A DNA stretch of 58,391 nt from Pseudonocardiales bacterium (GCA_019240665.1 JAFAXZ010000017.1:1-58391), one strand, 5' to 3'; counted from the stretch's first letter, positions 7,969 through 39,466 are shown. The notes: a model not told the origin generated them from the sequence alone. Translations and numbers: made by a program.

Positions 7969-9254
7969 TGGCAGCGCTGACGTCTCGACCCTGCGAGCAG
8001 GTCTCGAGCTTGCTGCGGCTGACCACCGCGGGTTCCGTCGACGACGGCAAGTCCACGCTGGTCGGGCGGTTACTGCACGACACCCAGTCGATCCTGGTCG
8101 ATCAGCTCGCCGCGGTGGACCGGGCCACGCGTGCCCGGGGCGGTGTCTCGTTGGATCTCGCCCTGCTCACCGACGGGCTGCGCGCCGAGCGGGAGCAGGG
8201 CATCACCATCGACGTCGCTTACCGCTATTTCGCCACCCCGACCCGTAAGTTCGTGCTGGCCGACTGCCCCGGACATGTGCAGTACACCCGCAACACCGTC
8301 ACCGGGGCGTCCACCGCTGAGCTCGCCGTGGTGCTGGTCGACGCGCGCAACGGACTGGTGGAGCAGACCCGGCGCCACCTCGCCGTCATGGCGTTCCTGC
8401 GGGTGCCGCACGTGGTACTCGCAGTGAACAAGATGGACTTGGTGGACTTCGACGAGCCGACGTTTCGCCGCATCGAGTCGGAATTCACGGCGGTGGCGAG
8501 CTCGCTGGGCGTGCCAGATGTGATGTCCGTGCCGGTGTCCGCGCTGCACGGCGACAACGTTGCGACTCGCAGCCGGCACACCGGGTGGTATCAGGGCCCG
8601 ACGCTGTTGGAGCACTTGGAGGCGGTACCTGCTGGGCGGGAGGCGGTGGCCGAACCGATGCGCTTCCCGGTGCAACTGGTGCTGCGACCCCGCACCCCCG
8701 AGCATCCCGACTACCGCGGTCTGGCCGGCCGGGTCGCCTCCGGGGTACTCAAGGTCGGCGACGATATCGTCGCGCTGCCCTCCGGAGGCCGCTCCACGGT
8801 TGTTGGCATCGACACCCCCGACGGTCCGATGCCGCGCGCCGCCGCCGGGCAGTCGATCACCGTGCTGCTTCGCGACGAGATCGACGCGGGGCGCGGCGAG
8901 GTGCTGGCCCACCCGGAGCAGCCGCCGCGGGTGGTTACCGAGCTGGACGCGGACCTGTGCTGGTTGGCCGAGGCGCCGCTGCGGGCTGGCGCGCGGGTGC
9001 TAGTCAAGCACGGCACTCGCACCGTCCAGGCACTCGTCACCGAGCTGACCGGGCGGCTGGACCTGCATACCCTGCGGCCTACCGAGGCACCGACCGCGTT
9101 GGAGCTCAACGAGATCGGTGGCGCGCAGATCCGGCTCGCCCAGCCGCTGGCGGTGGACTCCTACGCCACCGACCGCCACACCGGCAACTTCCTCGTCATC
9201 GACGCCACCAACGGCAACACCCTCGCCGCCGGACTCGTCGGCCCCGCGGCGTGA
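7968..9254 (+). CDS. cysN: Sulfate adenylyltransferase subunit 1 (GTPase)
   Basis: GTPase motifs GSVDDGKST, DCPGH and NKMD. The start overlaps the cysD stop. Confidence 0.93.
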   Translation: MAALTSRPCEQVSSLLRLTTAGSVDDGKSTLVGRLLHDTQSILVDQLAAVDRATRARGGVSLDLALLTDGLRAEREQGITIDVAYRYFATPTRKFVLADCPGHVQYTRNTVTGASTAELAVVLVDARNGLVEQTRRHLAVMAFLRVPHVVLAVNKMDLVDFDEPTFRRIESEFTAVASSLGVPDVMSVPVSALHGDNVATRSRHTGWYQGPTLLEHLEAVPAGREAVAEPMRFPVQLVLRPRTPEHPDYRGLAGRVASGVLKVGDDIVALPSGGRSTVVGIDTPDGPMPRAAAGQSITVLLRDEIDAGRGEVLAHPEQPPRVVTELDADLCWLAEAPLRAGARVLVKHGTRTVQALVTELTGRLDLHTLRPTEAPTALELNEIGGAQIRLAQPLAVDSYATDRHTGNFLVIDATNGNTLAAGLVGPAA

Positions 9255-9300
9255 GTGCCGGCGCATCGGGCGCTGGTGCCGGCCGGGGAGCCGCCGCGCG

Positions 9301-9345
9301 CGGGTGTCGGGACGATGGGTGTCGGAACGATGGGTGTCGGGACGA
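9301..9345. repeat. 15-bp tandem repeat gggtgtcgg(g/a)acgat, 3 copies, in the cysN to RAMP-gene intergenic region
   Basis: Copies at 9301-9315, 9316-9330 (one mismatch) and 9331-9345. Confidence 0.95.
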
Positions 9346-9465
9346 TGTGGTAGACCGTTTTGTTGGCGCGGTCCACTGGGCGCTCACCCGCCGGCAACGA
9401 CGTCACGGCTCAGGTGTTTGCCGCGCTGGCCCATTTCGCCGACGGCGCTGGCGTGGAGGTGAGGC

Positions 9466-11994
9466 ATGCCGCGGGTTTCGGTCGTTGCCGTGAGTGCGGA
9501 ACAAGTCGTGTTCGCGCCGCATACCGAGGTGAGATGGCTGACCAGGGACCTTGTCAATGACTGCGGTACCACTCTCCCAGAAGTGGGTCAGGTCGGGGAG
9601 TTCGAGGAGGATTGCTCGAACTGGATCTTTGAGGTGGATCCGGGGTGGCGCGTCGAGTTGCGTGGCCTGAAAGCGGTCGGCAGCCCAGAGTTGATGACGT
9701 TTCGGGTCAACGGCACGAGGACTGTCATTGACCTGACCGATCATGGTGTGCCGCCGGCGATGAAAGCGAAGGCAGCGAGGTTGAGGTTCTGGCTGCTCGT
9801 CCGCCGCGACGGGGACGTCGCTGCCGTGCCGGATCAGGGGGGACTGTATGGACATTTCGATCACCCGGACGTGCCGTCCTGGGTGGCGGAAATCGAGCAG
9901 GAGGCCGCTGCCGAGACTCAGCGAAAACAGGACGCGGAGCTCCTCTGGCGCAAGCGGGAATCGGAGAAAACATCGCGGGACCATTTCATCAATCCGTACA
10001 CCTTCGTCCCGTTCCCGGCGCAACCGCCGCAGCGTGTTAAGCCGTATGGCCATCACGCACTTGCGGAGGAGAGGAAAGAAGCCCGTTTCGCGGGTAGGAT
10101 CACGGCCCAGCTGGTGGCCCGGTCGCCGCTGTTGGTGCGTAACGTCGGCTCGGCCGCACCGCTCGTTGACGATGTAATGACGGCACCGCGAACGGGCACG
10201 GGCCTGCTGTTCATCCCCGGATCGTCGCTGCATGGTGCGATCCGCTCACTGCACGAGACCCTTACCGGCAGCTGCCTGCGTGTCTTCGACCCCGACTTCG
10301 TCCCCGTCTATCGGGACGTCGCCAGCGGTGCGCTGCGCCAGGGCTGGGATCTGGGTGTGGTCGAGGAGGTCGGCCAGGACCACGCTGGCCGTCCGACCAG
10401 GCTCACCCGCTGCGATGAAACCAGGTGGGTTCCGCTCACAACGCTGGCCCGCAGCATACCGAAGGGCGGTGCGGTGACGACCGGACAACGCTTCCAGCTC
10501 AACGAGCAGGACTTCTCCACGCAGCACGGCAGGGAGGTTTACAAGGAGACAGCGTCCGCAATTCTCGACCCGAACGGTGGCTGGGTCGTGCTCGTCACCG
10601 ACGACAGCGCCCGGAAATCGAACATGCCGTACTACTGCGCGGTGGGGCGCCTGCCCGCAACGCCGCAACCGATGGCGCTGACCGACCGCGCGTGGCATGA
10701 GTATCTGCGAGCTGCGGAGGGCACCAAGCAGTGGTTCGCCGGAGAGACCCAGCCACACTTCGAGGCCGAGCGTGCGCGGCTCGCCCAGCCGGGCACCAAC
10801 ATCGGCGACGTGGTCGGTGACCCCACCCTGGCCCGGGGACAAGGTCGCTGGTTGCGGCCGCGTCGGTGGTTTCATCAAGGTCAGGTGGTGTGGCTTGCGC
10901 CTAGCCATGGTCGGCTCCTCGACGGTATGGCGCTGTCGTACCTGTGGCGTACCGCGGGTCAGGGCAGCACCGGTGAGCGCCTCCCTGATGACGGATTCCA
11001 CCCGTGCCACGACCCGGATTTGCTGTGCCTGAGTTGCCGGGTGTTCGGCAGCGCCGATGTGCGGGACGTGAGCGGGCACGAGGTCGACCGTCGGCGCGCC
11101 GAGCAGCGCAGCTATCGGGGGCACGTCCGGGTGCTGGATGCGGTGCTGGAGTCGGGCGGCACGCTTGCTGAGCCTGTCGTGTTGCCTGCGATGGGCTCGC
11201 CTCGACCGGGGTCGGGGCAGTTCTATCTCGATGATCCACAGAGTAGTAAGGAGAGGCTGGGTTATCAGAAGCCACGCAACAGATGGGGTACTCCGGACCC
11301 GCTTCAACCTCGTCACCTGCGGGGGCGGAAGTTCTACTGGCACACCGATCCCCGGACTGATGAGCGGCGTCAACGGTGGCGAGCGCACGATCACGCCCCG
11401 GCCGGCGAGCAGGTCGAGTTGGTCGCCGCGGGCAGTGCCTACCGGCTGGACGTGGTGTTCGACGGGTTGACCAAAGCTGAGATCGGCGGCTTGGTGGCCA
11501 CGCTCCAACCGGACCGCCTGTTCGCCACGCAGCAGCAGCCACTGCCGTATCCGCTCAGCGGCGACCCGGAGTACGCCATCCACATCGGAGGCGGCAAGCC
11601 GCTCGGCCTCGGCTCCTGCCAGGTCCGGGACCTGCAGATCATCGCCGACAGCGTCGAGTCCCGCTATCTGGGTGCTGAGCAGCCGGTGCTCGATCCAGCC
11701 GACCTCATCGCAGCCTTTGTCACGGACCAGGGCGACCTCGGTTCCACCTGGCAGAACCTGGCCGCGGCGTTGCACACCGACCACGTTGACTCCCGCATCG
11801 TCTCTTACCCCACCGCTACCGAGTGGGCAGACGACGACGGAACCTGCTCCGGTAAGCGACAGCATGAGGCATTCACGTGGTTCCAGCAGACGACCGGCGA
11901 AGCCTTGCGAGACGGAGAGCGACCGTTCGTCCCGTTGCCGTCGGTCTCGGATATCGCTCCGGTACTGGCGGTGCACGCCAAGGAGAACAGGTGA
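9466..11994 (+). CDS. Large RAMP-superfamily protein (842 aa) with an unknown roughly 170-aa N-terminal domain and a large internal insertion
   Basis: RBS GGAGGTGAGGC precedes the ATG. RAMP signatures: FINPYTFVPF, LLFIPGSSLHGAIRSL, CLSCRVFGS, LRGRKFYWH and the glycine loop IHIGGGKPLGLGS. Confidence 0.8.
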   Translation: MPRVSVVAVSAEQVVFAPHTEVRWLTRDLVNDCGTTLPEVGQVGEFEEDCSNWIFEVDPGWRVELRGLKAVGSPELMTFRVNGTRTVIDLTDHGVPPAMKAKAARLRFWLLVRRDGDVAAVPDQGGLYGHFDHPDVPSWVAEIEQEAAAETQRKQDAELLWRKRESEKTSRDHFINPYTFVPFPAQPPQRVKPYGHHALAEERKEARFAGRITAQLVARSPLLVRNVGSAAPLVDDVMTAPRTGTGLLFIPGSSLHGAIRSLHETLTGSCLRVFDPDFVPVYRDVASGALRQGWDLGVVEEVGQDHAGRPTRLTRCDETRWVPLTTLARSIPKGGAVTTGQRFQLNEQDFSTQHGREVYKETASAILDPNGGWVVLVTDDSARKSNMPYYCAVGRLPATPQPMALTDRAWHEYLRAAEGTKQWFAGETQPHFEAERARLAQPGTNIGDVVGDPTLARGQGRWLRPRRWFHQGQVVWLAPSHGRLLDGMALSYLWRTAGQGSTGERLPDDGFHPCHDPDLLCLSCRVFGSADVRDVSGHEVDRRRAEQRSYRGHVRVLDAVLESGGTLAEPVVLPAMGSPRPGSGQFYLDDPQSSKERLGYQKPRNRWGTPDPLQPRHLRGRKFYWHTDPRTDERRQRWRAHDHAPAGEQVELVAAGSAYRLDVVFDGLTKAEIGGLVATLQPDRLFATQQQPLPYPLSGDPEYAIHIGGGKPLGLGSCQVRDLQIIADSVESRYLGAEQPVLDPADLIAAFVTDQGDLGSTWQNLAAALHTDHVDSRIVSYPTATEWADDDGTCSGKRQHEAFTWFQQTTGEALRDGERPFVPLPSVSDIAPVLAVHAKENR

Positions 11995-12629
11995 CGGTCT
12001 ACCTCGACATCGGCGCGAAACGCATTCAGGCGTATCTCGCTCGCACACCCCGCTTGCGGGGCCGACGGGGTGCCTCCGCGCTGCTCGAGTACGAGAGGTT
12101 GCACGAGTGGACCAGGGATGCCTGGTCACGGTACGTGGAGGTCAACGAGGAGGGCAAGAGGACCGACGGGGTGCTCTCGCTGCGCTTCACCAACCCGGAC
12201 GTCGATGACCGCACGATCGATGCCGTGGTGACCGAGACCGCGACGCGGCTGCAGCGTCTGGCGCCGGGAGCCGAATGGGACGTGCATCTGCGCCGCGCGG
12301 ACAGCTATCGGCAGGCTCTGCGCGACGGTGCCGCCGCCGAGCGCGCCGGGCACGATCTGTTGCCCGGCAGTGTCATGCGGTACCGACCGCTCCCGGCCGC
12401 ACCGAACGAAGTGCCGGTCGTGCGGTTCTGCGACACCTGTGGCCTCGACCCGGCGGTGTGCACCGGGCAGGTGGAACCGGCTGAGGCAGACGGGAAGAAG
12501 TCGTTGTGCGCTGACTGCTCCCGCCGTTTCCTGGAGGGCGGGTACCGGACCGACACCCGCAACTGGACGCCGGACGAAGCGCGGAGGCGCTGGCAGGACA
12601 AGATCGCGCCGGGCGGGCTCGCCGGCTGA
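11991..12629 (+). CDS. Cas10-like protein, N-terminal part (palm-like domain plus CxxC..CxxC knuckle; no HD domain)
   Basis: AAGGAG RBS, and the GTG overlaps the upstream stop (GTGA). VYLDIGAKRIQAYL..RLRGRRGASALL resembles the Cas10 D-x-x-GIQ..LRGRS start. Zinc knuckle CDTCG..CADCS. It ends at a TGA, where homology continues in the +1 frame. Confidence 0.65.
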   Translation: MTVYLDIGAKRIQAYLARTPRLRGRRGASALLEYERLHEWTRDAWSRYVEVNEEGKRTDGVLSLRFTNPDVDDRTIDAVVTETATRLQRLAPGAEWDVHLRRADSYRQALRDGAAAERAGHDLLPGSVMRYRPLPAAPNEVPVVRFCDTCGLDPAVCTGQVEPAEADGKKSLCADCSRRFLEGGYRTDTRNWTPDEARRRWQDKIAPGGLAG

Positions 12630-12648
12630 GCGGGACCTGCGCGTCGGC

Positions 12649-13518
12649 GTGGAGCGGACCAAGCGCACGAATGCCGGGACGTTGAGGGTTGCTCCGGATT
12701 TCGGTGACCTCGCGGCGCTCGGTTCGGGCGACGCGAACCACTTATGCACCGTGGGCGACGCGAACCACTTATGCACCGTGTTCGTCGACGGCAACCGGTT
12801 CGGCGCTCTGTTCGCCGCATTGCAGGATGCCAAGGTCAGCTTGCGGGAAGAACTCTCGGCCGCACTCAACGAGGCGATCCGGGGTGCGCTAGTCGTCGCC
12901 ACCGCGGACGTGACCGGCGAGGCCGATACCTACCTGCCGGTCGTCCCGCACCTCGTCGGCGGCGACGACCTGCTCGCGTCGGTCACCGCCGACCGGGCAT
13001 GGGACTTCGTCGTGGCGTTTCTCAACGATTATCACCGACGGACGGCGGCGCTGGCTGCCGACTATCAGCAGCGCGCCGGTACCCCGGTCCCAGCTCCTCC
13101 CACCGCATCAGCTGGACTGGTGTTCGCCCACTACAAGTACCCGTTCGCCAACTGCCTCGACCTCGCCGAGACCGCGCTGCGGCGGGCGAAGTCCCGACAC
13201 AAGGCCCGGGAGCCGGCGGTGTGTTGGATCGACGTCACCGAGGACGGCCCGGAACTACCCCTGTCACGATCCGCGCCTCGCCTGATGACGCTAGCCGATC
13301 ACCGCTCCGACATCGACGGGCTGTGCACCATCCCACCATCCGGTCGAGCGCAACTGGCCAAGGCCGCCCAGGACGGCGATGACACGGCGGTGGCTGCGCT
13401 TGCGCACCGGCTCGGCCACATAAGTCTCATCCGGCCGTTCCAGCTGGCCCAGCCACCGATGCCGCTGCTCGACGCGCTGGCTCTCGGGAGGTGGTGGCAG
13501 TGCCGGCGACCCGCCTGA
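12649..13518 (+). CDS. Cas10-like protein, C-terminal part (Palm2/cyclase domain with intact GGDD)
   Basis: FGDLAAL, FVDGNRFGALF, VVPHLVGGDDLL (GGDD codons 12958-12969), SAGLVFAHYKYPF and ETALRRAKS. The frame is readable from 12628, and GTG at 12649 is a possible independent start. It may be the downstream half of a frameshifted single gene. Confidence 0.7.
   Translation: MERTKRTNAGTLRVAPDFGDLAALGSGDANHLCTVGDANHLCTVFVDGNRFGALFAALQDAKVSLREELSAALNEAIRGALVVATADVTGEADTYLPVVPHLVGGDDLLASVTADRAWDFVVAFLNDYHRRTAALAADYQQRAGTPVPAPPTASAGLVFAHYKYPFANCLDLAETALRRAKSRHKAREPAVCWIDVTEDGPELPLSRSAPRLMTLADHRSDIDGLCTIPPSGRAQLAKAAQDGDDTAVAALAHRLGHISLIRPFQLAQPPMPLLDALALGRWWQCRRPA
12727..12780. repeat. Perfect 27-bp tandem duplication (ggcgacgcgaaccacttatgcaccgtg, 2 copies) inside the Cas10-like Palm2 gene
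   Basis: Copies at 12727-12753 and 12754-12780. In frame, it duplicates GDANHLCTV. Confidence 0.97.
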
Positions 13519-14069
13519 TCTTTGAGGTCACCTTCCACGGCCCGGTGCGCGTCGGCCGGGGCCGCGCTGGCGTCGGGGTGGACGACACCGTTGACCCCGA
13601 CGTGATCGTGCCGGGCTCGTCGCTGAAAGGGCTTATGCGTGCCGAGGCGGCTGTCTTGTTCGGCGGTCGCCAGGCCGATCTGGTCGGGGAGGTCTTCGGC
13701 ACGGCCAGGCAGCCCAGCCCGTGGCACTGGAACGACATCCGCGCTGACAGCACGGCCGAGAACCTGGTCAGATCCGGAGCCCGCATCCGCGTCGACAGCA
13801 CGTCCGGCTCTACCGTTGACGGTGGTCTGTTCTCGGCGGAATACCGCTGGCCACGAACCGCCCGGTTCGCCGTTCAGCGTTTCGCCGCACTCACCGACGA
13901 GGACAGCGAACGCCATGAGGTGTTGCTGTGGGTCGCGGCGCTGTCCGTGCACAGCGTCGGCGCCGACCGCAATCGCGGTTATGGCTGGGTCGATGTCAGG
14001 CGGGTAGGCGCCGAGCCGGACGAGGTGTTCCTGGCCCGGGTCGCCAACGTGCTGGGGGTGCGATCATGA
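13500..14069 (+). CDS. Small RAMP protein (Csm3/Cmr4/Cas7-like, about 189 aa)
   Basis: GGGAGG RBS before the GTG at 13500 (the ORF is open from 13491). VPGSSLKGLMR, EVFG, RVDSTSGSTVDGGLFSAE and the C-terminal glycine loop NRGYGW. Confidence 0.78.
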   Translation: MPATRLIFEVTFHGPVRVGRGRAGVGVDDTVDPDVIVPGSSLKGLMRAEAAVLFGGRQADLVGEVFGTARQPSPWHWNDIRADSTAENLVRSGARIRVDSTSGSTVDGGLFSAEYRWPRTARFAVQRFAALTDEDSERHEVLLWVAALSVHSVGADRNRGYGWVDVRRVGAEPDEVFLARVANVLGVRS

Positions 14070-14695
14070 TCCGAGTCACTGTACGGGCCGAGCAGCCGCT
14101 GCACCTGGGTTCCCAGCTGGATGCCGGTTGGCTCACCGACACGCACCGTTTCGTGCCCGGCAGTGTGTTGCGTGGTGCGCTGGCGGCGCTGTGGCTGGCC
14201 GAACACCGTCCCCCGAAGCCCGACACTAGCGACGATGTGGAATTCCAGCGGCTCTTCGAGGGCGGGGTGCGGTTCGGGCCGCTCTACCCGAGCGACGACG
14301 CGCTGCGCCCGCTGTCGGTGTTCGGCTGCAAGTACGCCGATGATGACGCCTGCCGCGGGTTCACCTACGACGCCGCGGTCGACGGCGCCGCTCGCCCCAC
14401 CTGCCCAGCCTGCGGTTCCCCGGTCGAGGCGAGCAAGGGCCACATCGACGGTGTCCGGGTCGTCGAGCACACCCGGGTTGAGCTCGACGAGCGCGAACGC
14501 GCCGCCAACTGCGTCAGCCCCTCTGTGTGCGGGGGTACGCTAAGGATCATGGCCAACGGGGCAGGGTACGTCGTACCCGCACCGGTTGTTACGGCCGGAC
14601 GCCTACTCGGTCGCAGAGCGCGTGCACGTCATCTCGTAGTCCCGTGGGCGGGGCGGCGGCGAGAAAAAGCAACATATCGCGGGCGTAGCCGTTGA
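14066..14695 (+). pseudogene. Second RAMP protein (Cas5/Csx10-like N-terminus with a zinc-ribbon insert), apparently 3'-truncated
   Basis: ATGA coupling to the previous gene. MIRVTVRAEQPLHLGS, FVPGSVLRGALAAL, VRFGPLYP and CKY..C....CPACG. After about 14510 the translation loses protein-like character and runs into the convergent gene that ends at 14589. Confidence 0.6.
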
Positions 14696-15812
14696 AGCGG
14701 ATGGTGTCCGGCGCGGTGCGCTCGGCGGCATGCAACATCGCGTACGCGCCATCCCGGTCGTGCCGCTGGTGATGGGCACGGGCGACTTCGATCAGGTGCC
14801 TGCTGCGCCGGGCAAGCGAGGGAATCTCGTTGGCGTCGAAGCCGTTTGCGGTGCGCATCGCCTCGCCGGGACGGCGCAGCTCCACATCGAGCGTGACCGC
14901 GTGGGCATTCATCACGGTGATGCTGAATGACGTCTGCACATGCCGGTACCGCGAACCTAACCGCCGGGCCATCTCGTTGGCCCGTTCCCAATACGACCAC
15001 GCTTCACCGTGCCGACCGCGACGGGCATGCACATAGCCCACCTCGAATTGCAGGGCTCCCCACATGCCACGCCAGTCGTCATCGGAGGTGCGGTGCAACC
15101 ACGGTTCGAGCTGCCGCGCTCCGCCGAACGCAACCGTGATGGCTTCTTCCCAGCGCCCGGTGTCCCGCAGCGCGCCGGTCAGCGCCCACGCGCCGCCCGC
15201 GATGCCGTATGGGTCATCGGCTTCCTGCGCCTCGGTAATCGCGCGGTCGGCCACCAGCCACACCAGTTCGGGAGCCGGTTGGTAGGCGACATAGAAATCC
15301 GCCAGCCGGTACACCCCGGCCAGCACTCGACGAGCTGTGCGCCGCTCACTGCCCTTCGTGGTGCGCACCGCGCGTTGGCCATCTCGGATGAGATCGGGCA
15401 GCAACGCGCCAACGGCCGTCCGGTGAGCGGGGCTACTGTGGCGCACATCCCACGCTTGATCCAGCCGCATCTGTAGGTGCGCCACGTTGACCGGTGCATC
15501 CTGAGCCGCGAACCGGTAGTCGGTGAGCGCGGCCTGCACCGCGGACAGCGCGGCGTGCGCTTCGCCGGTGAACGCTTGTACCGGCACCGCGTGACCGTCC
15601 CCGGTCAACTCGGCCAGGTCGCGCACGTCCAACGCTCGCGCGATCCGCAACAGCATCGGCAGCCGGGGCACCTGCAACCGGCCCGTCTCGACGGCCTTCA
15701 CCCATTCCGCACTGCGCCCCACCAGCCCGCCGAGAACAGGTCGGCTCATTCCGATTCGGTTGCGGAAATGCTTGATGCGCTCGCCGGTGGTCTTCCCCGT
15801 CACATCGGCCAT
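14589..15812 (-). CDS. XRE-family HTH regulator with a C-terminal TPR-like domain (WhiJ-like)
   Basis: N-terminal HTH (GERIKHFRNRIGMSRPVLGGLVGRSAEWVKAVETG). The long helical C-terminus is typical of actinomycete 400-aa XRE regulators. Confidence 0.8.
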   Translation of the reverse strand: MADVTGKTTGERIKHFRNRIGMSRPVLGGLVGRSAEWVKAVETGRLQVPRLPMLLRIARALDVRDLAELTGDGHAVPVQAFTGEAHAALSAVQAALTDYRFAAQDAPVNVAHLQMRLDQAWDVRHSSPAHRTAVGALLPDLIRDGQRAVRTTKGSERRTARRVLAGVYRLADFYVAYQPAPELVWLVADRAITEAQEADDPYGIAGGAWALTGALRDTGRWEEAITVAFGGARQLEPWLHRTSDDDWRGMWGALQFEVGYVHARRGRHGEAWSYWERANEMARRLGSRYRHVQTSFSITVMNAHAVTLDVELRRPGEAMRTANGFDANEIPSLARRSRHLIEVARAHHQRHDRDGAYAMLHAAERTAPDTIRFNGYARDMLLFLAAAPPTGLRDDVHALCDRVGVRP

Positions 15813-16924: not shown

Positions 16925-18411
16925 ATGAGCCGGGAACCGGAAGCCATCACGGCGCAGCGCCGCCAGCTCGGCGCAGCGCTGGCCACCTTCCGGCAGGCAG
17001 CTGGGCAGAGCCAAGCGCAGCTGGGCCTGCACACCCGGTACGACCGAACCTCGATCAACAAGATCGAGCGCGGCCAGCAGTTGCCGGACCGGCCGTTCTG
17101 GCAGGCAGTCGATCGACTGCTGCACGCCGAGGGGGCGCTGCTGAAGCGCTATGACGAGCTGGTCGCCAGCAAGCGGGAGCACGCCCAGCGGCAGCGGCAG
17201 TCCAGCCGGGCGCGCCATCAGGTCGACGCCGCGCGCTTGCGCGGTGAGCGAGCACCGACACCCGCACTGCTGAACTCGGACCCGGCGAACGAGCCGGCCA
17301 ACGATCCCGAGCATGAGGTGGCGCTCTCCGCGCCGTGGAGCCACCAAGGTACCGTCGAGGCGTCAGTCGTGCTGAGAGGCGGTGAGAGTCGAGTGCAGCG
17401 CCGACGCTTCGTGTTTCTGACCGGCACAGCCTTGACTGCCCCGGCGCATCAATGGTTGGTGCACGAGCCGGGACCGCTGGTGTCCGGCCTGTCCGGGCGT
17501 CGGGTCTCGGCCAAGCTGATCGACCGGCTTATGCCGATGGTCTCCGAACTCCGCAGATGGACGACATCGCCGGTGGTGGCAGCGTGCTCTCCCTGGCTGC
17601 GCACGAATTCCAGTGGGTCGCCGGGTTGCTCGACCAAGCCAGGTATGACGAGCGGACCGGCCGCGCGCTGCACATCGCACTCGCCGAGCTGGGACAGGTT
17701 TGTGGCTGGGCCGCCTACGACGCCGGATACCACGCGCTGGCCCAGCGCTACTACGTCACTGCCTTGCGCGCAACGCACAGCGCCGACGAGCGGCCGCTCG
17801 GCGCGCACGTGCTCGGTCTCATGGCCGAGCAGGCCGCCCACCAGGGCCAGCCCGCTGAGGCCGTGACGCTTATCGAGACCGCCCTGGCCGGTACCCGGGG
17901 TCGGCAGACCCCGAGCCTGCTGGCCGAGCTGTACAACGTGCAGGCCTATGCCTTCGCGACACTGGCTGACGCGTCGAGCTGCGCCGCCGCGCTCTCCCAG
18001 GCACGCACGCAGATCGAGCGACTGAGGCCAGCTGACGAGCCGTCCTGGCTGTACTGGGTGAATCCAGCGACCATGACGAGCGACGGCGGCAGCGCCCTGC
18101 GGCAGTTGGGGCACACCGAGCAAGCGGCGACGGTGCTCGAGAATGGCATCGCCCTGTTCGACGACTCACTCCCCCGTGGCCGCGCCGGCTATCTCACCGC
18201 CCTCGCCGATGTCCTGGCTCGGCCGGACAAGCAGCGCGACCTGGATGCCGCCGCTGACCGGGGCATGGAGGCGATCCAGCTGGTCGAGAACCTGGACTCC
18301 GCCCGCGTTGCCGGTCTGATCCGCAACCTCTACCACCAGATGACGCCACACGCGCGGCTGCCCGCCGTAGGAGACTTCGTGGAGCGAGCGCGAGGTTTCC
18401 TGGCGACATAG
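16925..18411 (+). pseudogene. XRE-HTH plus TPR-like regulator (paralogue of 14589-15812), frameshifted near 17556
   Basis: ORF 16925.. carries the HTH (LGLHTRYDRTSINKIERGQQ). ORF ..18411 carries the TPR-like part. The join SELRR / MDDIAGGG is restored by a 1-nt indel around 17555-17558. Confidence 0.65.
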
Positions 18412-19033: not shown

Positions 19034-19112
19034 AAGTGGCACCACATTGCGCAGGTAGCCGCCGACCTCCGCAACCACCCGCTCGCGGACCGTCCCCGAT
19101 CGGGCGCCGCTG

Positions 19113-19331
19113 ATCTAGCACGGCGACCGTCCGCTCTCCGGTATCCAACGCCGCGGTATGCGCGGCGGTGTCGATGCCTGCCGCCAGGCCGGAGACGACC
19201 GTGATCCCGGCTGACACCAGTGCTGTCGACGCCTCGGATGCCCAGTCCAAGCTGCGCTTGGAGGCCCGCCGGGACCCGACCACTGACATTGCCGACTCGC
19301 CGGTCGGACTCGACAGCCTGGTCCAGGTCAT
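19113..19331 (-). pseudogene. dprA: DprA/Smf fragment (Rossmann-core remnant only)
   Basis: VVGSRRAS....ITVVSGLAAGIDTAAHTAALDTGERTVAVL matches the DprA core signature. Both flanks of the protein are missing. Confidence 0.5.
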
Positions 19332-20141: not shown

Positions 20142-20486
20142 TCACGCGTCCGCGAGCAGCACCGACAGGGGGCGTCCCGAGCTGGCTGCGGCCGCGTCGT
20201 CGAGCACCGCGAGCACGGCGCGGTACCCCTCAGGGTCGGCGGCCTCGAGCTGGTGGTGGCCTGCCCAGACCAGCACGTGCTCACCAACTGGTTGCCAAGA
20301 CAGGTCGACCAGGCAGTCGTGCAGCGCGTCGAGGTTGCGGCCGTACCAGAACGGGAAATCCAGGGCGACGCCGATCGCTTCCAGCGCCTCGGCCTTGCTG
20401 CTCATCGGGCCCACCAGGTGCGCCAGCGCGCCCCGGTCACGAGCTTCGGCGAGTGCACGGGCGGCATCAGGGACATAACGCAGCAC
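20142..20486 (-). CDS. Barstar-family ribonuclease inhibitor
   Basis: FPFWYGRNLDALHDCLVDLSW signature. The GTG start lies 5 nt after the RNase stop. Confidence 0.8.
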   Translation of the reverse strand: MLRYVPDAARALAEARDRGALAHLVGPMSSKAEALEAIGVALDFPFWYGRNLDALHDCLVDLSWQPVGEHVLVWAGHHQLEAADPEGYRAVLAVLDDAAAASSGRPLSVLLADA

Positions 20487-20490
20487 GGCC

Positions 20491-20907
20491 TTACCGTTTC
20501 GGATCGACCGTGACGAAGGACACATAGTGATTCCCGGTGTAGTACAGCTCGGCGGCACCGCCGGTGATCAGGCGGCGGGGGCCCCGGTCATGTTCCCCCG
20601 GTGTCGGAACGGTGTACTCCCGGTAAAAGCCGGACTGCTGTGGCGGCAAGCGCCCCTCCCGGTTGCCGAACACCGCCCCGTCCTGCCGGTAAGGGAACGG
20701 GCCGCCGTGCTGGATCAGCTGCCACACCTGCGTGGCCTGCGGCGGTAGCTGCGACAAGGCCCGGACCGGCAGGCCAGTCGTCGAGGCAACCACCGAGGGC
20801 CGGTCACCCACGAGTGGAGCGGACAGCGCGTGGCGCCCCCAGGCGCCGCCGGCCACCAGCACAACCAGGCCGATCAGCGCGGCGCTGACCCGTCGGCGGG
20901 AACTCAC
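20491..20907 (-). CDS. Secreted guanyl-specific ribonuclease (RNase Sa / N1-T1 microbial RNase family)
   Basis: N-terminal signal/TM segment (AALIGLVVLVAGGAW). Catalytic-core-like GPFPYRQDGAVFGNREGRLP..YREYTV..RGPRRLI..YYTGNHY. Confidence 0.82.
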   Translation of the reverse strand: MSSRRRVSAALIGLVVLVAGGAWGRHALSAPLVGDRPSVVASTTGLPVRALSQLPPQATQVWQLIQHGGPFPYRQDGAVFGNREGRLPPQQSGFYREYTVPTPGEHDRGPRRLITGGAAELYYTGNHYVSFVTVDPKR

Positions 20908-21185
20908 CGGGGCTCCCGCGCATCTTCTGCGTCCCCGGCGTAGCGGTGGCCGATCCGTTCGAAGATCAGGCCAACGGCCCGGTCCAGCGTCCGGGCAGCC
21001 CACCAGCAGACCGGCAGCAACACCAGCATGAACAGGGCCACTTGCAGCGCGAGCCCGAGCTGGGTGAGCCACAGCTCCACCCCGTTCCACCAGCGGCTCA
21101 CCGCGTCCCACCCCACCCACAGCACAACCGCAGGGTAGCTCGCGCGGAGATGCCCGCCAGTGGCCGGCACTAGGTTGGGCGGCAT
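20904..21185 (-). CDS. Small membrane protein upstream of the RNase gene
   Basis: Two hydrophobic helices, and the stop overlaps the RNase GTG (GTGA). The start is uncertain because ATG 21185 collides with the divergent gene start. Confidence 0.45.
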   Translation of the reverse strand: MPPNLVPATGGHLRASYPAVVLWVGWDAVSRWWNGVELWLTQLGLALQVALFMLVLLPVCWWAARTLDRAVGLIFERIGHRYAGDAEDAREPR

Positions 21186-25967: not shown

Positions 25968-26076
25968 GCCCCCATCCTTGCATCGGGCGGCGACCCGATC
26001 GCTTGCTCCCGCATCGTGGACTCGGCTGGGCGGTCGGTACCGACTAACGTACGGTGAAGACCACAACCGAATACAG

Positions 26077-26211
26077 CTCATCCAGAGGGGCAGAGGGATC
26101 GGCCCGACGAAGCCCCGGCAACCGACGCTAGCTGACGCGCATGTCTTTGCATACCGCGAGGCCGCTAGCGATCACGGTGCCAATTCCGACCCGCCGTGCG
26201 GGAGAGATGAG
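26077..26211 (+). promoter_or_regulatory. SAM-I (S-box) riboswitch
   Basis: P1 ctcatc...gatgag. Conserved cores agaggggcagagggatcggcccgacgaagccccggcaaccg and ggtgccaattcc. It sits immediately upstream of the ATG at 26226. Confidence 0.85.
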
Positions 26212-26225
26212 GAGAGGACCTCGCG

Positions 26226-27506
26226 ATGACTGGCACGCTCGGCACTAGCGCGATCAACACCAGGACCACCACCTCTGGCCTAGACCTGGGACCTGCGCGC
26301 CATCTGGTGTGTCGGGAATGTGGATTCAGCACCCCACTGGCAGCAGAGTTCGCCTGCGCCGAGTGCTTCGGGCCGCTGGAGGTTGGCTATGACTTCGGGC
26401 GCCTCACCCGTCCGGACATCGAATCGGGGCCCCTATCGATCTGGCGCTATCGCAGGCTGCTGCCCGTGCCGGACGACGTCGACGAACACCCGAACACCCA
26501 GCCCGGCCTGACCCGGCTGATCCGCGCCGACCGACTCGCCAAGGCGCTGGGGGTTCGCCGGCTGTGGGTCAAGGACGACACCGGCAACCCGACACACTCC
26601 TTCAAGGACCGGGTGGTGGCGGTCGCGCTGGCCGCCGCTCGACAGCTCGGTTTTCGGGTACTTGCCTGTCCTTCCACCGGCAACCTCGCGAACGCGGTGG
26701 CCGCTGCGGCCGCCCGTGCCGGCTGGGAGTCGGTGGTGCTCATCCCCTCCTCATTGGAACGGGCCAAGGTGCTGACCACAGCGGTCTACGACGGTGCGCT
26801 GATCGCGGTGGACGGCACCTACGACGACGTCAACCGGCTGGCCACCGAACTCGCCGCAGAACACGAGGACTGGGCATTCGTCAACGTCAACGTCCGGCCC
26901 TACTACGCCGAGGGCTCCAAGACGCTGGGTTACGAGGTCGCCGAGCAACTCGGCTGGCGATTGCCCGATCAGATCGTGGTGCCGATCGCCTCCGGTTCGC
27001 AGCTAACCAAGGTGGACAAGGCTTTCCGCGAGTTCACCGAACTGGGCCTGGTGCAGCCCTTGCCGTACCGGGTGTTCGGGGCCCAGGCCACCGGCTGTTC
27101 ACCAGTATCCGCAGCCTTCAAGGCTGGCCGTGACGTGGTCGTACCGGTCCGGCCGGACACCATCGCTCGCTCACTGGCGATCGGCGCGCCCGCCGACGGT
27201 CCCTATGCGTTGGATGCCGTCCGCCGTACCAACGGCGCGATCGAGGACGTCACCGACGCTGAAGTGATCGAGGGTATCCGGCTGCTGGCCCGCACCGAAG
27301 GGATCTTCACTGAGACCGCTGGGGGGGTAACGGTGGCCTGCGCGAAGAAGCTCGTCGGGTACGGCCAGTTGGACCCCGACGCCGAAACCGTCCTGCTCAT
27401 CACCGGCGACGGGCTCAAGACCTTGGACGCTGTAGAAGATCACCTGGGACCACAAACCACCGTGCCGCCGAACACCAAGGCGATCCGCGAGGCCCTCGGA
27501 AGCTGA
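26226..27506 (+). CDS. Threonine-synthase-family PLP enzyme with an N-terminal zinc ribbon (possible MetM-type homocysteine synthase)
   Basis: CRECG..CAECFG ribbon and the PLP-lysine motif HSFKDR. It is preceded by the SAM riboswitch. Confidence 0.85.
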   Translation: MTGTLGTSAINTRTTTSGLDLGPARHLVCRECGFSTPLAAEFACAECFGPLEVGYDFGRLTRPDIESGPLSIWRYRRLLPVPDDVDEHPNTQPGLTRLIRADRLAKALGVRRLWVKDDTGNPTHSFKDRVVAVALAAARQLGFRVLACPSTGNLANAVAAAAARAGWESVVLIPSSLERAKVLTTAVYDGALIAVDGTYDDVNRLATELAAEHEDWAFVNVNVRPYYAEGSKTLGYEVAEQLGWRLPDQIVVPIASGSQLTKVDKAFREFTELGLVQPLPYRVFGAQATGCSPVSAAFKAGRDVVVPVRPDTIARSLAIGAPADGPYALDAVRRTNGAIEDVTDAEVIEGIRLLARTEGIFTETAGGVTVACAKKLVGYGQLDPDAETVLLITGDGLKTLDAVEDHLGPQTTVPPNTKAIREALGS

Positions 27507-37484: not shown

Positions 37485-37579
37485 GGGCGCAGCCTAGGCG
37501 AGCCGTTCGGGAGCAGCCCCGGCGGCGATAAGGCGGCGATAAGCTGGGGCTCCAGCGAGCAACCGGTGGTTGGACAGTC

Positions 37580-39466
37580 GTGGCGAGCAAGAGTCTCAGC
37601 GAGGTCTCAGCGAGGGAACGGGCGCTAGTCGACGCCTTGACGTCCGGCTGCGTAGTCGAGTGCAGCAAACTCAGCACTGAGCAGTTAGGCGCGACGGACA
37701 ACCCTCGGTACACCATCCGTGCCGAGCTCCTGCGGGAGCTGGTGCTAGGACGCAGCGGTGAGCGTCTTGATCCACGGGGGGTGCGTGTCCATGGAGCGCG
37801 GATCATGGGAACGCTTGATCTCACCCATGTCCCGGCCGCAGTGGGGATTGAACTGCGAGGCTGCTTCTTCGAGCGCGCTGTGCTGCTGGCCAGTGCCCAC
37901 TTGCCCTGGTTGACCTTGGCGAGCTCGCATCTGTCGGCGCTGGACTGTGACGGCCTCCACGTTGACGGCGACGTTCTGCTCGGCGACGGATTCACGGCCA
38001 CCGGACAAAGCGACTGCGGTGCAGTGCGGCTGCTCGGCGCCCACGTCAGAGGCCAGCTCAACTTCAACGGCGCGAGGCTGACCAACGAGACCGGGCCCGC
38101 CCTCATCGGCGACGGGCTGCGCGTTGATGGCGACGTATTTGGCGGGGGGTTCATCGCCACCGGATACGGCGAACTCGGCGCGGTGCGACTGCCGGGCGCC
38201 CACATCATCGGGCAACTCAACCTCAACGGCGCCGAGCTGGCCAATCAAGCCGGGCCCGCCCTCATCGGCGATGGGCTTCATGTTGACGGCGGTCTGGTGC
38301 TCGCCGAGGGATTCACCGCCACCGGACACTACGAGCGGGGCGCGGTGCGGTTGCCCGGTGCCCACATCAGCGGCCAACTCAACTTGGATGGCGCGGCGCT
38401 GATCAACCCGGTCGGGCCCGCCCTCATCGGTGACCACCTCGACGTCAACGGTGGCGTGTTCCTCGACGGGTTCACCGCCACCGGATACGGCGAAGACGGC
38501 GTAGTGCGGCTGCCGGACACCCATATCACCGGCCAACTCAACCTCGACCGCGCGGAGCTGACCAACCCCACCGGGCCTGCCTTCATCGGCGACCACCTCC
38601 GGGTCGACAGCGACATGTTCGCCGAGGGATTCACCGCCACCGGACACAGTCAAGACGGCACCGTGCGGCTGGCAGACGCCCACATCAGCGGCCAACTCAA
38701 CCTCAGCCACGCCAAGCTGACCAACCCGGCCGGGCCGGTCCTCGATCTGGAGGACACTGCGACCAAGCACCTATTTCTGCCCGCCCAGGTGATCTGCCCA
38801 CACGATGCGGCCAAGAGGACTAGCTGCACCGCGCCAGCACATCGGCTCGCGCTATCCGGCCTCGCTTACACGTCGCTGCATGCGGTCGACTGGCGTGAGT
38901 GGCTGCACGTGATCATTCACCATACCCGTGACTACCGACCTCAGCCCTACCAGCAACTTGCCGCCGCATTGAGAGCCAGTGGCCACGAATCCACCGCGCG
39001 GGAAGTCCTCATCGCCCAACAGCAGGACCTTTACCACCGCGGTGATCTCGGTGGCCCGCTGATCAAGAGTGCGCACTGGCTCTGGGGAACACTCGCCGGA
39101 TACGGCTACCGCAGCAGCCGCGCTGTCCTCGTCCTCGTGCTGGTGCTCATGATTGCGGCAGGGCTGGGTGTTGCCGCCGGGCACATCCCCATCGGCCCGG
39201 GCCACTACGTCACCGCGCACACCAGTCAAACCCCCGATCCCAACTCGCCGTGCTCTCTGGTCGAGCAGATCGGGGTAGGTATCGACCGCAGCGTGCCGCT
39301 GGCTCCAGCGGGCATCAACAACCGCTGCGATTTCGACACGTCCAGCCCGCTTGGCCAAGCGTTCACCGCATCCACCTGGATACTCCAAGCCCTGGTTTGG
39401 ACGCTGGCCGCGCTCGCCATCGCCGGTTACCTCGGTCTCATCCGTAAGACCAGTGCGCCGGGATGA
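37580..39466 (+). CDS. Repeat-rich (beta-helix-like) protein with a C-terminal membrane domain. The family is often annotated as membrane-associated oxidoreductase or pentapeptide-like; its function is unknown.
   Basis: About 5.5 tandem 53-54-aa units (GAVRLPGAHIxGQLNLxGAxLxNxxGPALIGDxLxVDGxxF..GFTATG). C-terminal TM helices. Its 3' end overlaps the proA end by 29 nt. Confidence 0.75.
   Translation: MASKSLSEVSARERALVDALTSGCVVECSKLSTEQLGATDNPRYTIRAELLRELVLGRSGERLDPRGVRVHGARIMGTLDLTHVPAAVGIELRGCFFERAVLLASAHLPWLTLASSHLSALDCDGLHVDGDVLLGDGFTATGQSDCGAVRLLGAHVRGQLNFNGARLTNETGPALIGDGLRVDGDVFGGGFIATGYGELGAVRLPGAHIIGQLNLNGAELANQAGPALIGDGLHVDGGLVLAEGFTATGHYERGAVRLPGAHISGQLNLDGAALINPVGPALIGDHLDVNGGVFLDGFTATGYGEDGVVRLPDTHITGQLNLDRAELTNPTGPAFIGDHLRVDSDMFAEGFTATGHSQDGTVRLADAHISGQLNLSHAKLTNPAGPVLDLEDTATKHLFLPAQVICPHDAAKRTSCTAPAHRLALSGLAYTSLHAVDWREWLHVIIHHTRDYRPQPYQQLAAALRASGHESTAREVLIAQQQDLYHRGDLGGPLIKSAHWLWGTLAGYGYRSSRAVLVLVLVLMIAAGLGVAAGHIPIGPGHYVTAHTSQTPDPNSPCSLVEQIGVGIDRSVPLAPAGINNRCDFDTSSPLGQAFTASTWILQALVWTLAALAIAGYLGLIRKTSAPG
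37940..38760. repeat. DNA-level tandem array of units about 159-162 bp long, encoding the protein repeats
   Basis: The periodicity is read from the translation. Unit boundaries are approximate. Confidence 0.7.

Follow-up and report, generated by a model that had tools for sequence, protein, structure and literature searches.

The closest described relatives of the genes considered here belong to type III-D CRISPR-Cas systems. In the III-Dv complex of Synechocystis sp. PCC 6803, a Cas7 that bears an insertion forms the cap and presents the 3' seed of the CRISPR RNA (crRNA) (PMC11026444). SAM-AMP and SAM-AMP2 are the products of a III-D2 system that works through CorA, and toxin-antitoxin (TA) pairs of the VapBC type have been reported beside III-D2 loci (PMC13294483). 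Many type III loci are also known that have no array of their own (PMC12669027). Here we analysed a stretch of 58,391 nucleotides from a Pseudonocardiales bacterium (GCA_019240665.1 JAFAXZ010000017.1:1-58391), the whole of which is called the window below, and in which four co-directional cas reading frames occupy positions 9466-14695 of the + strand.

A first-pass annotation, made from the sequence alone, had taken these four genes for a CRISPR-independent RAMP-cyclase system and had described the pairing of the large RAMP with a minimal Cas10 as uncharacterised. The latter statement is outdated: the TIGR03986 protein is known as the Cas7-insertion subunit of type III-D effector complexes, and its complex with Cas10 has been solved and studied biochemically (PDB 8s9t, PMC11026444). 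As to the former, our comparison with intact relatives indicates that the region is very probably what is left, at the 5' end, of a conventional type III-D effector operon (III-D1-like, multi-subunit) after its inactivation in this Pseudonocardiales lineage.

Intact and damaged cas genes in the window

The gene calls placed the four reading frames in tight succession. The stop codon of the large RAMP gene and the start codon of cas10 share GTGA at 11991-11994, the small RAMP gene starts at 13500 inside the tail of cas10 (tail end, 13518), and ATGA at 14066-14069 provides the stop of the small RAMP gene and the start of csx10. The translations contained all the peptide motifs quoted in the first-pass annotation. 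Its account of four co-directional genes, their overlapping junctions and their motifs was therefore confirmed by the gene calls and translations. In what follows, the window is compared with its closest intact relative, L001/L002, which shares 78-82% amino acid identity and about 83% DNA identity with it, the flanking cysH/C/D/N genes included.

Two of the four genes were intact. The first, cas7-insertion (9466..11994, +), encodes an 842-aa RAMP of the large TIGR03986 family, against which it scored 204.4 bits, above the curated NCBIfam whole-protein cutoff of 161.35. The protein also matched Pfam RAMPs and part of Cas7-11e, as well as the PADLOC Csm3 and Cas7_IIId profiles over their full length, and among PDB sequences it matched the Cas7-11 entries and the TIGR03986 chains of 8s9t and 9wxh. 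It is 78% identical to its L001 orthologue over the full length, and residues 1 to ~170 constitute an N-terminal extension specific to the clade. An identical protein (100%) was found in one Pseudonocardiales metagenome-assembled genome, and well over 100 homologues occur in Actinomycetota, most of them named as TIGR03986 CRISPR-associated proteins, a name that at least 120 homologues bear. The second intact gene (13500..14069, +) encodes a small Csm3-like Cas7 of 189 aa, which matched Pfam RAMPs with 49 bits (1.3e-12) and PADLOC Csm3 with 8.7e-34, and which is 82% identical over its full length to the 189-aa L001 orthologue.

The cas10 gene was split. Its 5' fragment (11991..12629, +) holds the palm-like N-terminal region and the CxxC..CxxC knuckle and is cut short by an early TGA that results from a frameshift; its 3' fragment (12616..13518, +), comprising Palm2 with GGDD and the C-terminal domain, lies in another frame. 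The GGDD protein scored 46.5 bits (4.9e-12) against Pfam Cas10-Cmr2_palm2 (cutoff, 27). On the PADLOC Cas10 profile of 414 positions, the 5' fragment covered positions 3-175 and the 3' fragment positions 153-380 (1.2e-32), so that the two fragments jointly spanned positions 3-380. The window Cas10 opens directly with the palm-like segment (profile position 3), and the profile search returned no HD match for either the window fragments or the 499-aa L001 Cas10, in agreement with the HD-less Cas10 of type III-D. An ordinary GGDEF diguanylate cyclase or an mCpol was considered and rejected: no Pfam GGDEF match was obtained at E values up to 0.1, and the best matches were Cas10 profiles and the Cas10 of 8s9t. 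Moreover, the cas10 gene was always adjoined by Cas7 and Cas5 genes in the surveyed loci.

Alignment with L001 located the frameshift. By tblastn, residues 1-206 of the L001 Cas10 aligned to 11991-12605 in frame 3 and residues 210-497 to 12616-13509 in frame 1, which bounds a net gain of one base relative to the intact orthologue within 12605..12626 (+). In the DNA alignment, the extra base falls in GCTCGCCGGCTGAG, against GCTCGAC-GCTGAA in L001, outside any long homopolymer, and leads to the TGA at 12627-12629. This position falls in the linker that joins the zinc knuckle to Palm2. Further along cas10, Tandem Repeats Finder (TRF) and a direct-repeat search detected a perfect tandem duplication of 27 bp (12726..12779, +). 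It adds nine residues (GDANHLCTV) just before the FVDGNRFG motif of Palm2, and the 27-bp unit is single-copy in L001 (DNA alignment).

The fourth gene is a 5' remnant of csx10-type cas5 (14066..14508, +), which retains 148 of ~432 codons, the zinc-ribbon insert included. The fragment matched TIGR02674 Csx10 with 3.1e-10 (a partial match, under the curated cutoff) and PADLOC Cas5_IIId with 6.8e-11, both matches being confined to the first ~100 residues. It is thus a Csx10-type Cas5 of the III-D kind, and its L001 orthologue matches Cas5_IIId end to end (1.8e-27). The 432-aa L001 protein aligned to the window by residues 1-148 only (tblastn), and DNA homology to L001 breaks off at ~14505-14508. 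Beyond this deletion or rearrangement breakpoint, a non-homologous tail (14509..14695, +) shows no similarity to L001; the open frame runs through it to a stop at 14695 and overlaps the 3' end of a convergent HTH_31 gene (14589-15812, minus strand). The profile searches thus upheld the assignments made earlier (a TIGR03986 large RAMP, an HD-less minimal Cas10 with intact GGDD, a small Cas7 and a Csx10-like RAMP), and the earlier remark that this copy is partly decayed is substantiated by the cas10 frameshift and by the truncation of csx10 at ~14508.

The split cas10 (212-aa and 280/289-aa products) and the junction with the HTH_31 gene recurred in three other assemblies (ENA, NCBI and Logan), which are 99.5-99.9% identical to the window. 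The 27-bp duplication varied among them: it was absent in the Logan assembly (L088), and its second copy carried one mismatch in the ENA and NCBI assemblies (L086 and L087), while the two copies in the window are identical. Given that the lesions are shared by several near-identical haplotypes, the frameshift and the truncation appear to be real, and the duplication appears to be a later polymorphism.

The missing parts of the operon were sought throughout the window. No CRISPR array was found in the 58 kb by TRF, the direct-repeat search or a k-mer chain detector, and no remnant repeats were detected in it when up to 3 mismatches to the L001 repeat were allowed or when nhmmer was run with two repeat-family profiles. 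With intact-locus queries, tblastn and jackhmmer revealed no homologues of Cas6, Cas1, reverse transcriptase (RT), the second Cas7, Cas11 or TM-SAVED in the 58 kb, which yielded no further set of type III genes either. These searches agree with the absences listed by the first-pass annotation (array, adaptation genes, cas6, HD and sensor). Compared with a complete backbone of Cas5, several Cas7 proteins and Cas11, the window lacks the double-RAMP cas7 and cas11, and its cas5 is reduced to 148 codons; a source of crRNA (an array, usually with Cas6) is likewise absent from it.

Intact relatives of the operon

The L001/L002 locus is syntenic with the window: it occupies the same site directly after cysH/C/D/N, and DNA identity is ~83% on both sides of the junction. 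The L001 gene row consists of a large RAMP (845 aa), Cas10 (499 aa), a small RAMP (189 aa), Cmr3/Csx10 (432 aa), a double RAMP (444 aa), a 136-aa protein and a 328-aa protein. The double RAMP is Cas7_IIId according to PADLOC (3.8e-37). The 136-aa protein matched the PADLOC profile 'Cas11 putative small subunit of type III' with 1.9e-17 and Csx24 with 2.2e-08. The 328-aa protein (17615-18601 of L001) carries N-terminal transmembrane (TM) helices and matched Pfam SAVED with 32.4 bits (cutoff, 26.2) and PADLOC SAVED_TM; it also matched a PADLOC profile labelled 'CorA-like' (6e-49). An array of four 36-nt repeats, spaced at 72-74 bp, lies ~450 bp past the operon (19058-19298).

Related loci were then surveyed. 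A scan with one genome per species gave 80 loci, and the survey set comprised 81 non-redundant loci, in which gene families were mapped by iterative hidden Markov model searches and arrays by the k-mer chain method. Counts refer to the 53 non-redundant loci that reach 20 kb or more, with linkage of Cas6, Cas1 or an array scored within 10 kb. The complete six-gene effector core was present in 53/53. TM-SAVED was found in 40 of them, Cas6 in 32, Cas1 (RT-Cas1 included) in 22 and an array in 30-35, and 42/53 had one or more of the last three in linkage. Arrays stood beside L001, L004, L008 and at least 41/81 related loci; most had repeats of 36-37 nt, many with the end ...ATAGAAAC. The four-gene architecture of the window was found in no related locus surveyed.

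Individual loci illustrate this organisation. In Pseudonocardia oroxyli (50% identity), the six-gene core is followed by Cas6, TM-CARF, RT and Cas1; Cas6 was identified by a profile match, and the TM-CARF (L003, 18214-18945) is CARF8--CARF_TM (2.8e-102). In Saccharopolyspora erythraea, the core adjoins an array of more than 20 repeats, which is interrupted by an insertion sequence element. The sensor-effector varies between close relatives, being 2TM-SAVED in L001 and TM-CARF, together with RT-Cas1, in P. oroxyli. The GGDD motif is kept in 77 of 79 Cas10 proteins of the family, the exceptions being L037 (AGDD) and L001 itself, in which RGDD replaces GGDD (13480-13500 region) though the orthologue is otherwise intact; the L001 cyclase may be impaired itself.

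Functional state and surroundings of the probable remnant

Taken together with characterised type III systems, the intact relatives suggest how the complete operon would work. In these relatives, the effector genes run in the order cas7-insertion, cas10 (HD-less, GGDD), small cas7, cas5/csx10, double-RAMP cas7 and cas11, followed by 2TM-SAVED or TM-CARF. Pre-crRNA would be cut by Cas6, as is inferred from the characterised systems, and Cas7, Cas5, Cas11 and Cas10 would assemble on the crRNA, the insertion-bearing Cas7 capping its 3' end, a placement for which the Synechocystis III-Dv complex (PDB 8s9t) provides support. Once a complementary transcript is bound, the Cas10 palm would be activated to make a nucleotide second messenger, and TM-SAVED or TM-CARF would sense it and bring about membrane damage and growth arrest. 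The SAVED partner suggests that the messenger is a cyclic oligonucleotide, although the SAM-AMP precedent of III-D2 and the 'CorA-like' match may point otherwise.

The window copy most likely can neither form an effector complex nor signal, since it has no intact Cas10, no Cas5 beyond residue 148, no second Cas7, no Cas11, no sensor-effector and no local crRNA source. The parts absent from the window are accounted for by the truncation at ~14508. Relative to L001, the ratio of nonsynonymous to synonymous substitution rates (dN/dS) was 0.28-0.47 for all cas pieces and 0.12-0.19 for cysD and cysN. Values of about 0.3 suggest that the operon was lost recently, having long been functional, and the recency of the loss would explain why the remaining reading frames are clean. 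The truncated csx10 fragment has the same dN/dS (0.31) as the intact genes, which indicates that the signal reflects history before the loss and not current constraint.

Some observations speak against the inactivation of a type III-D operon. The cas7-insertion and small cas7 genes are still full-length, and dN/dS is well under 1 in all fragments, so that residual function is possible. As the frameshift lies in the linker between knuckle and Palm2, Cas10 might in principle work as two pieces. The searches covered the 58-kb window, and the rest of the genome could still contain arrays, cas6 or another type III locus. Every sequence of this exact locus comes from a metagenome assembly. Finally, 11 of the 53 long loci (L013, L014, L015, L030, L038, L055, L063, L069, L077, L078 and L080) had neither Cas6 nor Cas1 nor an array within 10 kb; array linkage is thus frequent, not universal.

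Three other accounts draw on these observations. The remnant might be partly functional, its two intact cas7 genes and possibly a two-piece Cas10 acting in trans with another locus or array, or having been exapted. The clean reading frames of both Cas7 genes and the dN/dS of ~0.3 in all pieces are in line with this, as are the position of the frameshift in an inter-domain linker and the start of a new ORF ~20 nt past the stop. However, the truncated csx10 carries the same dN/dS as the intact genes, Cas5, the second Cas7 and Cas11 are never missing from the 53 long loci, the polymorphic 27-bp duplication in the first Palm2 motif resembles ongoing decay, and the 58 kb offers no second type III gene set with which the pieces could act. 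We consider partial function unlikely. Still more improbable is that the 842-aa Cas7-insertion, with its ~170-residue extension, and the 189-aa Cas7 have been kept under selection after Cas10, Cas5, Cas11, the effector and the array were lost, and now serve as an exapted RNA-binding module without Cas10 or array, or act in trans with crRNAs from elsewhere in the genome. The lesions could alternatively be assembly or binning artefacts that conceal an intact III-D locus in the true genome, a suspicion raised by the metagenomic origin of all copies. Yet the frameshift and the HTH_31 junction were reproduced in the ENA, NCBI and Logan assemblies, 0.1-0.5% of their positions and the state of the 27-bp duplication set these apart from the window as distinct haplotypes, and the extra base lies outside a long homopolymer; an artefact is accordingly very hard to credit.

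The remaining account is that of the first-pass annotation, in which the four genes make up a stand-alone system for defence or signalling, built of RAMPs and a cyclase, derived from type III and independent of CRISPR. It draws on the lack of an array, cas1, cas2, cas6 and a sensor gene in the window, on the intact GGDD of the cas10 3' fragment and on the 11 long loci without nearby Cas6, Cas1 or array. Such a system calls for intact orthologues that are consistently free of arrays, cas6, adaptation genes and sensors, whereas the orthologues carry a second Cas7, Cas11, TM-SAVED or TM-CARF, Cas6, (RT-)Cas1 and arrays. The comparison that the annotation itself had proposed, namely whether orthologous loci are flanked by arrays, cas6 or cas1, was carried out, and its outcome (42/53 linked and 40/53 with TM-SAVED) points to a degraded conventional type III locus. 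The syntenic orthologue goes on where the window breaks off: it contains residues 149-432 of csx10 and, beyond them, another cas7, cas11, TM-SAVED and an array, while in the window cas10 is frameshifted and csx10 ends at the homology breakpoint. Even the 11 array-less loci keep complete six-gene effector operons, several with TM-SAVED, in the ordinary pattern of type III (PMC12669027), and they presumably depend on arrays or Cas6 elsewhere in the genome. With its architecture shared by no surveyed relative, a self-standing four-gene system is extremely unlikely.

The view that the region is the 5' remnant of an inactivated type III-D operon limits its meaning to annotation: it should be recorded as a degraded type III-D cas operon in which cas10 is a pseudogene, csx10 a fragment and both cas7 genes are intact, and the label of a new CRISPR-less defence system is unwarranted. 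The gene set is already catalogued in curated NCBIfam and PADLOC profiles and in the solved structures of relatives, to which the window adds only a decayed copy. The case also advises caution, in that a derived function should be proposed for 'orphan' cas modules seen in one window only after intact orthologues have been compared. Beyond this window, the actinobacterial III-D clade at large, with separate Cas7-insertion, Cas10, Cas7, Csx10, Cas7x2 and Cas11 together with 2TM-SAVED or TM-CARF, is of moderate interest for type III signalling.

The surroundings of the operon were also inspected. An island location, which the first-pass annotation had proposed, found no support: GC content is flat, the relative has its operon at the same conserved position after cysDN (~83% DNA identity), the flanks consist of core genes (hrcA, hemN, sulfate assimilation, lepA, proB/proA, RNase E and a folC-like gene), and the gene calls include no integrase. 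Between cysN and the large RAMP gene, a 212-bp spacer (9245-9456) is unrelated to that of the orthologue and contains three copies of the 15-nt unit GGGTGTCGGGACGAT (9302-9347); at this position, L001 has two TA pairs (VapB-like/PIN and MazE/PIN) and a 112-aa open reading frame (ORF). Just downstream of the breakpoint, two long ORFs, 16925-17866 (+) and 17452-18411 (+), overlap in different frames. The former has an HTH_31 domain at its start and a low-complexity end, and the latter resembles the helical C-terminal part of such regulators; the two may represent another frameshifted gene. No paralogue of the 407-aa HTH_31 protein was found in these neighbouring overlapping ORFs, tblastn returning only the protein itself.

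Further features were noted elsewhere in the window. A riboswitch for S-adenosylmethionine (SAM) (Rfam RF00162, 77 bits; 26075-26213, +) lies directly upstream of an ORF for an enzyme dependent on pyridoxal phosphate (26211-27506, +; Pfam PALP, 2e-69), which is probably a gene of sulfur amino acid biosynthesis under SAM control. A 644-aa ORF without a Pfam match (37532-39466, +) contains about 5 copies of a 159-nt (53-codon) tandem repeat with ~74% identity (37954-38743). On the minus strand, a barnase-barstar-like pair of genes for barstar (PF01337) and a secreted ribonuclease (PF00545) is located at ~20143-20908, coordinates that were converted from the L086 gene calls.

Relation to known type III systems

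The large RAMP shows a link to III-E Cas7-11 (gRAMP). Its N-terminal core and the region flanking the insertion match Cas7-11e at ~845-985 (NCBIfam, 1.7e-20), and the Cas7-11 structures 7yn9 and 7zol in the PDB match it at ~1e-9. Membership in III-E was rejected, the score being 72 bits against the NF041225 cutoff of 700 and the match being local only. The Cas7-11e match is consistent with the descent of III-E from III-D. Cas7-11 is a single fused Cas7x4-Cas11 effector without Cas10, whereas Cas7, Cas10 and Cas5 are separate here.

Among solved complexes, the III-Dv complex of Synechocystis sp. PCC 6803 (PDB 8s9t) contains the best relative of the window Cas10 (profile E value, 4.2e-14) and of the large RAMP, which matches the 8s9t chain named 'TIGR03986 family', that is, its Cas7-insertion. 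The similarity is remote, at 18.9 bits with a single sequence and 55 bits with a profile. In III-Dv, subunits are fused (Cas7-Cas5-Cas11 and Cas7-2x) and Csx19 is present, whereas the clade described here has separate genes. Within subtype III-D, csx19 (all1473-like) is frequent but not constant.

The III-D2 system (PDB 9wxh) provided distant matches, to its Cas10 and 'TIGR03986 family' chains. L001 resembles III-D2 loci in being preceded by TA pairs of the VapBC type. III-D2 differs in its fused Cas7x3 and Cas7-5 and in a true CorA, in which a soluble domain at the N-terminus precedes a CorA-type TM domain at the C-terminus; unlike this CorA, the L001 protein has its TM helices at the N-terminus and carries a Pfam SAVED domain.

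The closest correspondence is with the multi-subunit type III-D1 (PMC12669027, PMC11026444, PMC13294483), with which the locus shares an HD-less Cas10 with GGDD, a Csx10-type Cas5 and separate Cas7 genes, including one of the TIGR03986 family that bears a large insertion. The window copy departs from III-D1 in its frameshifted cas10 and truncated csx10 and in the absence of the second cas7, cas11, effector, cas6, cas1 and array. The orthologues extend the likeness to III-D1 with Cas11, Cas6, (RT-)Cas1 and arrays of 36-37-nt repeats, and the actinobacterial clade to which they belong is distinguished by its usual pairing with 2TM-SAVED, as opposed to Csm6/Csx1 or CorA.

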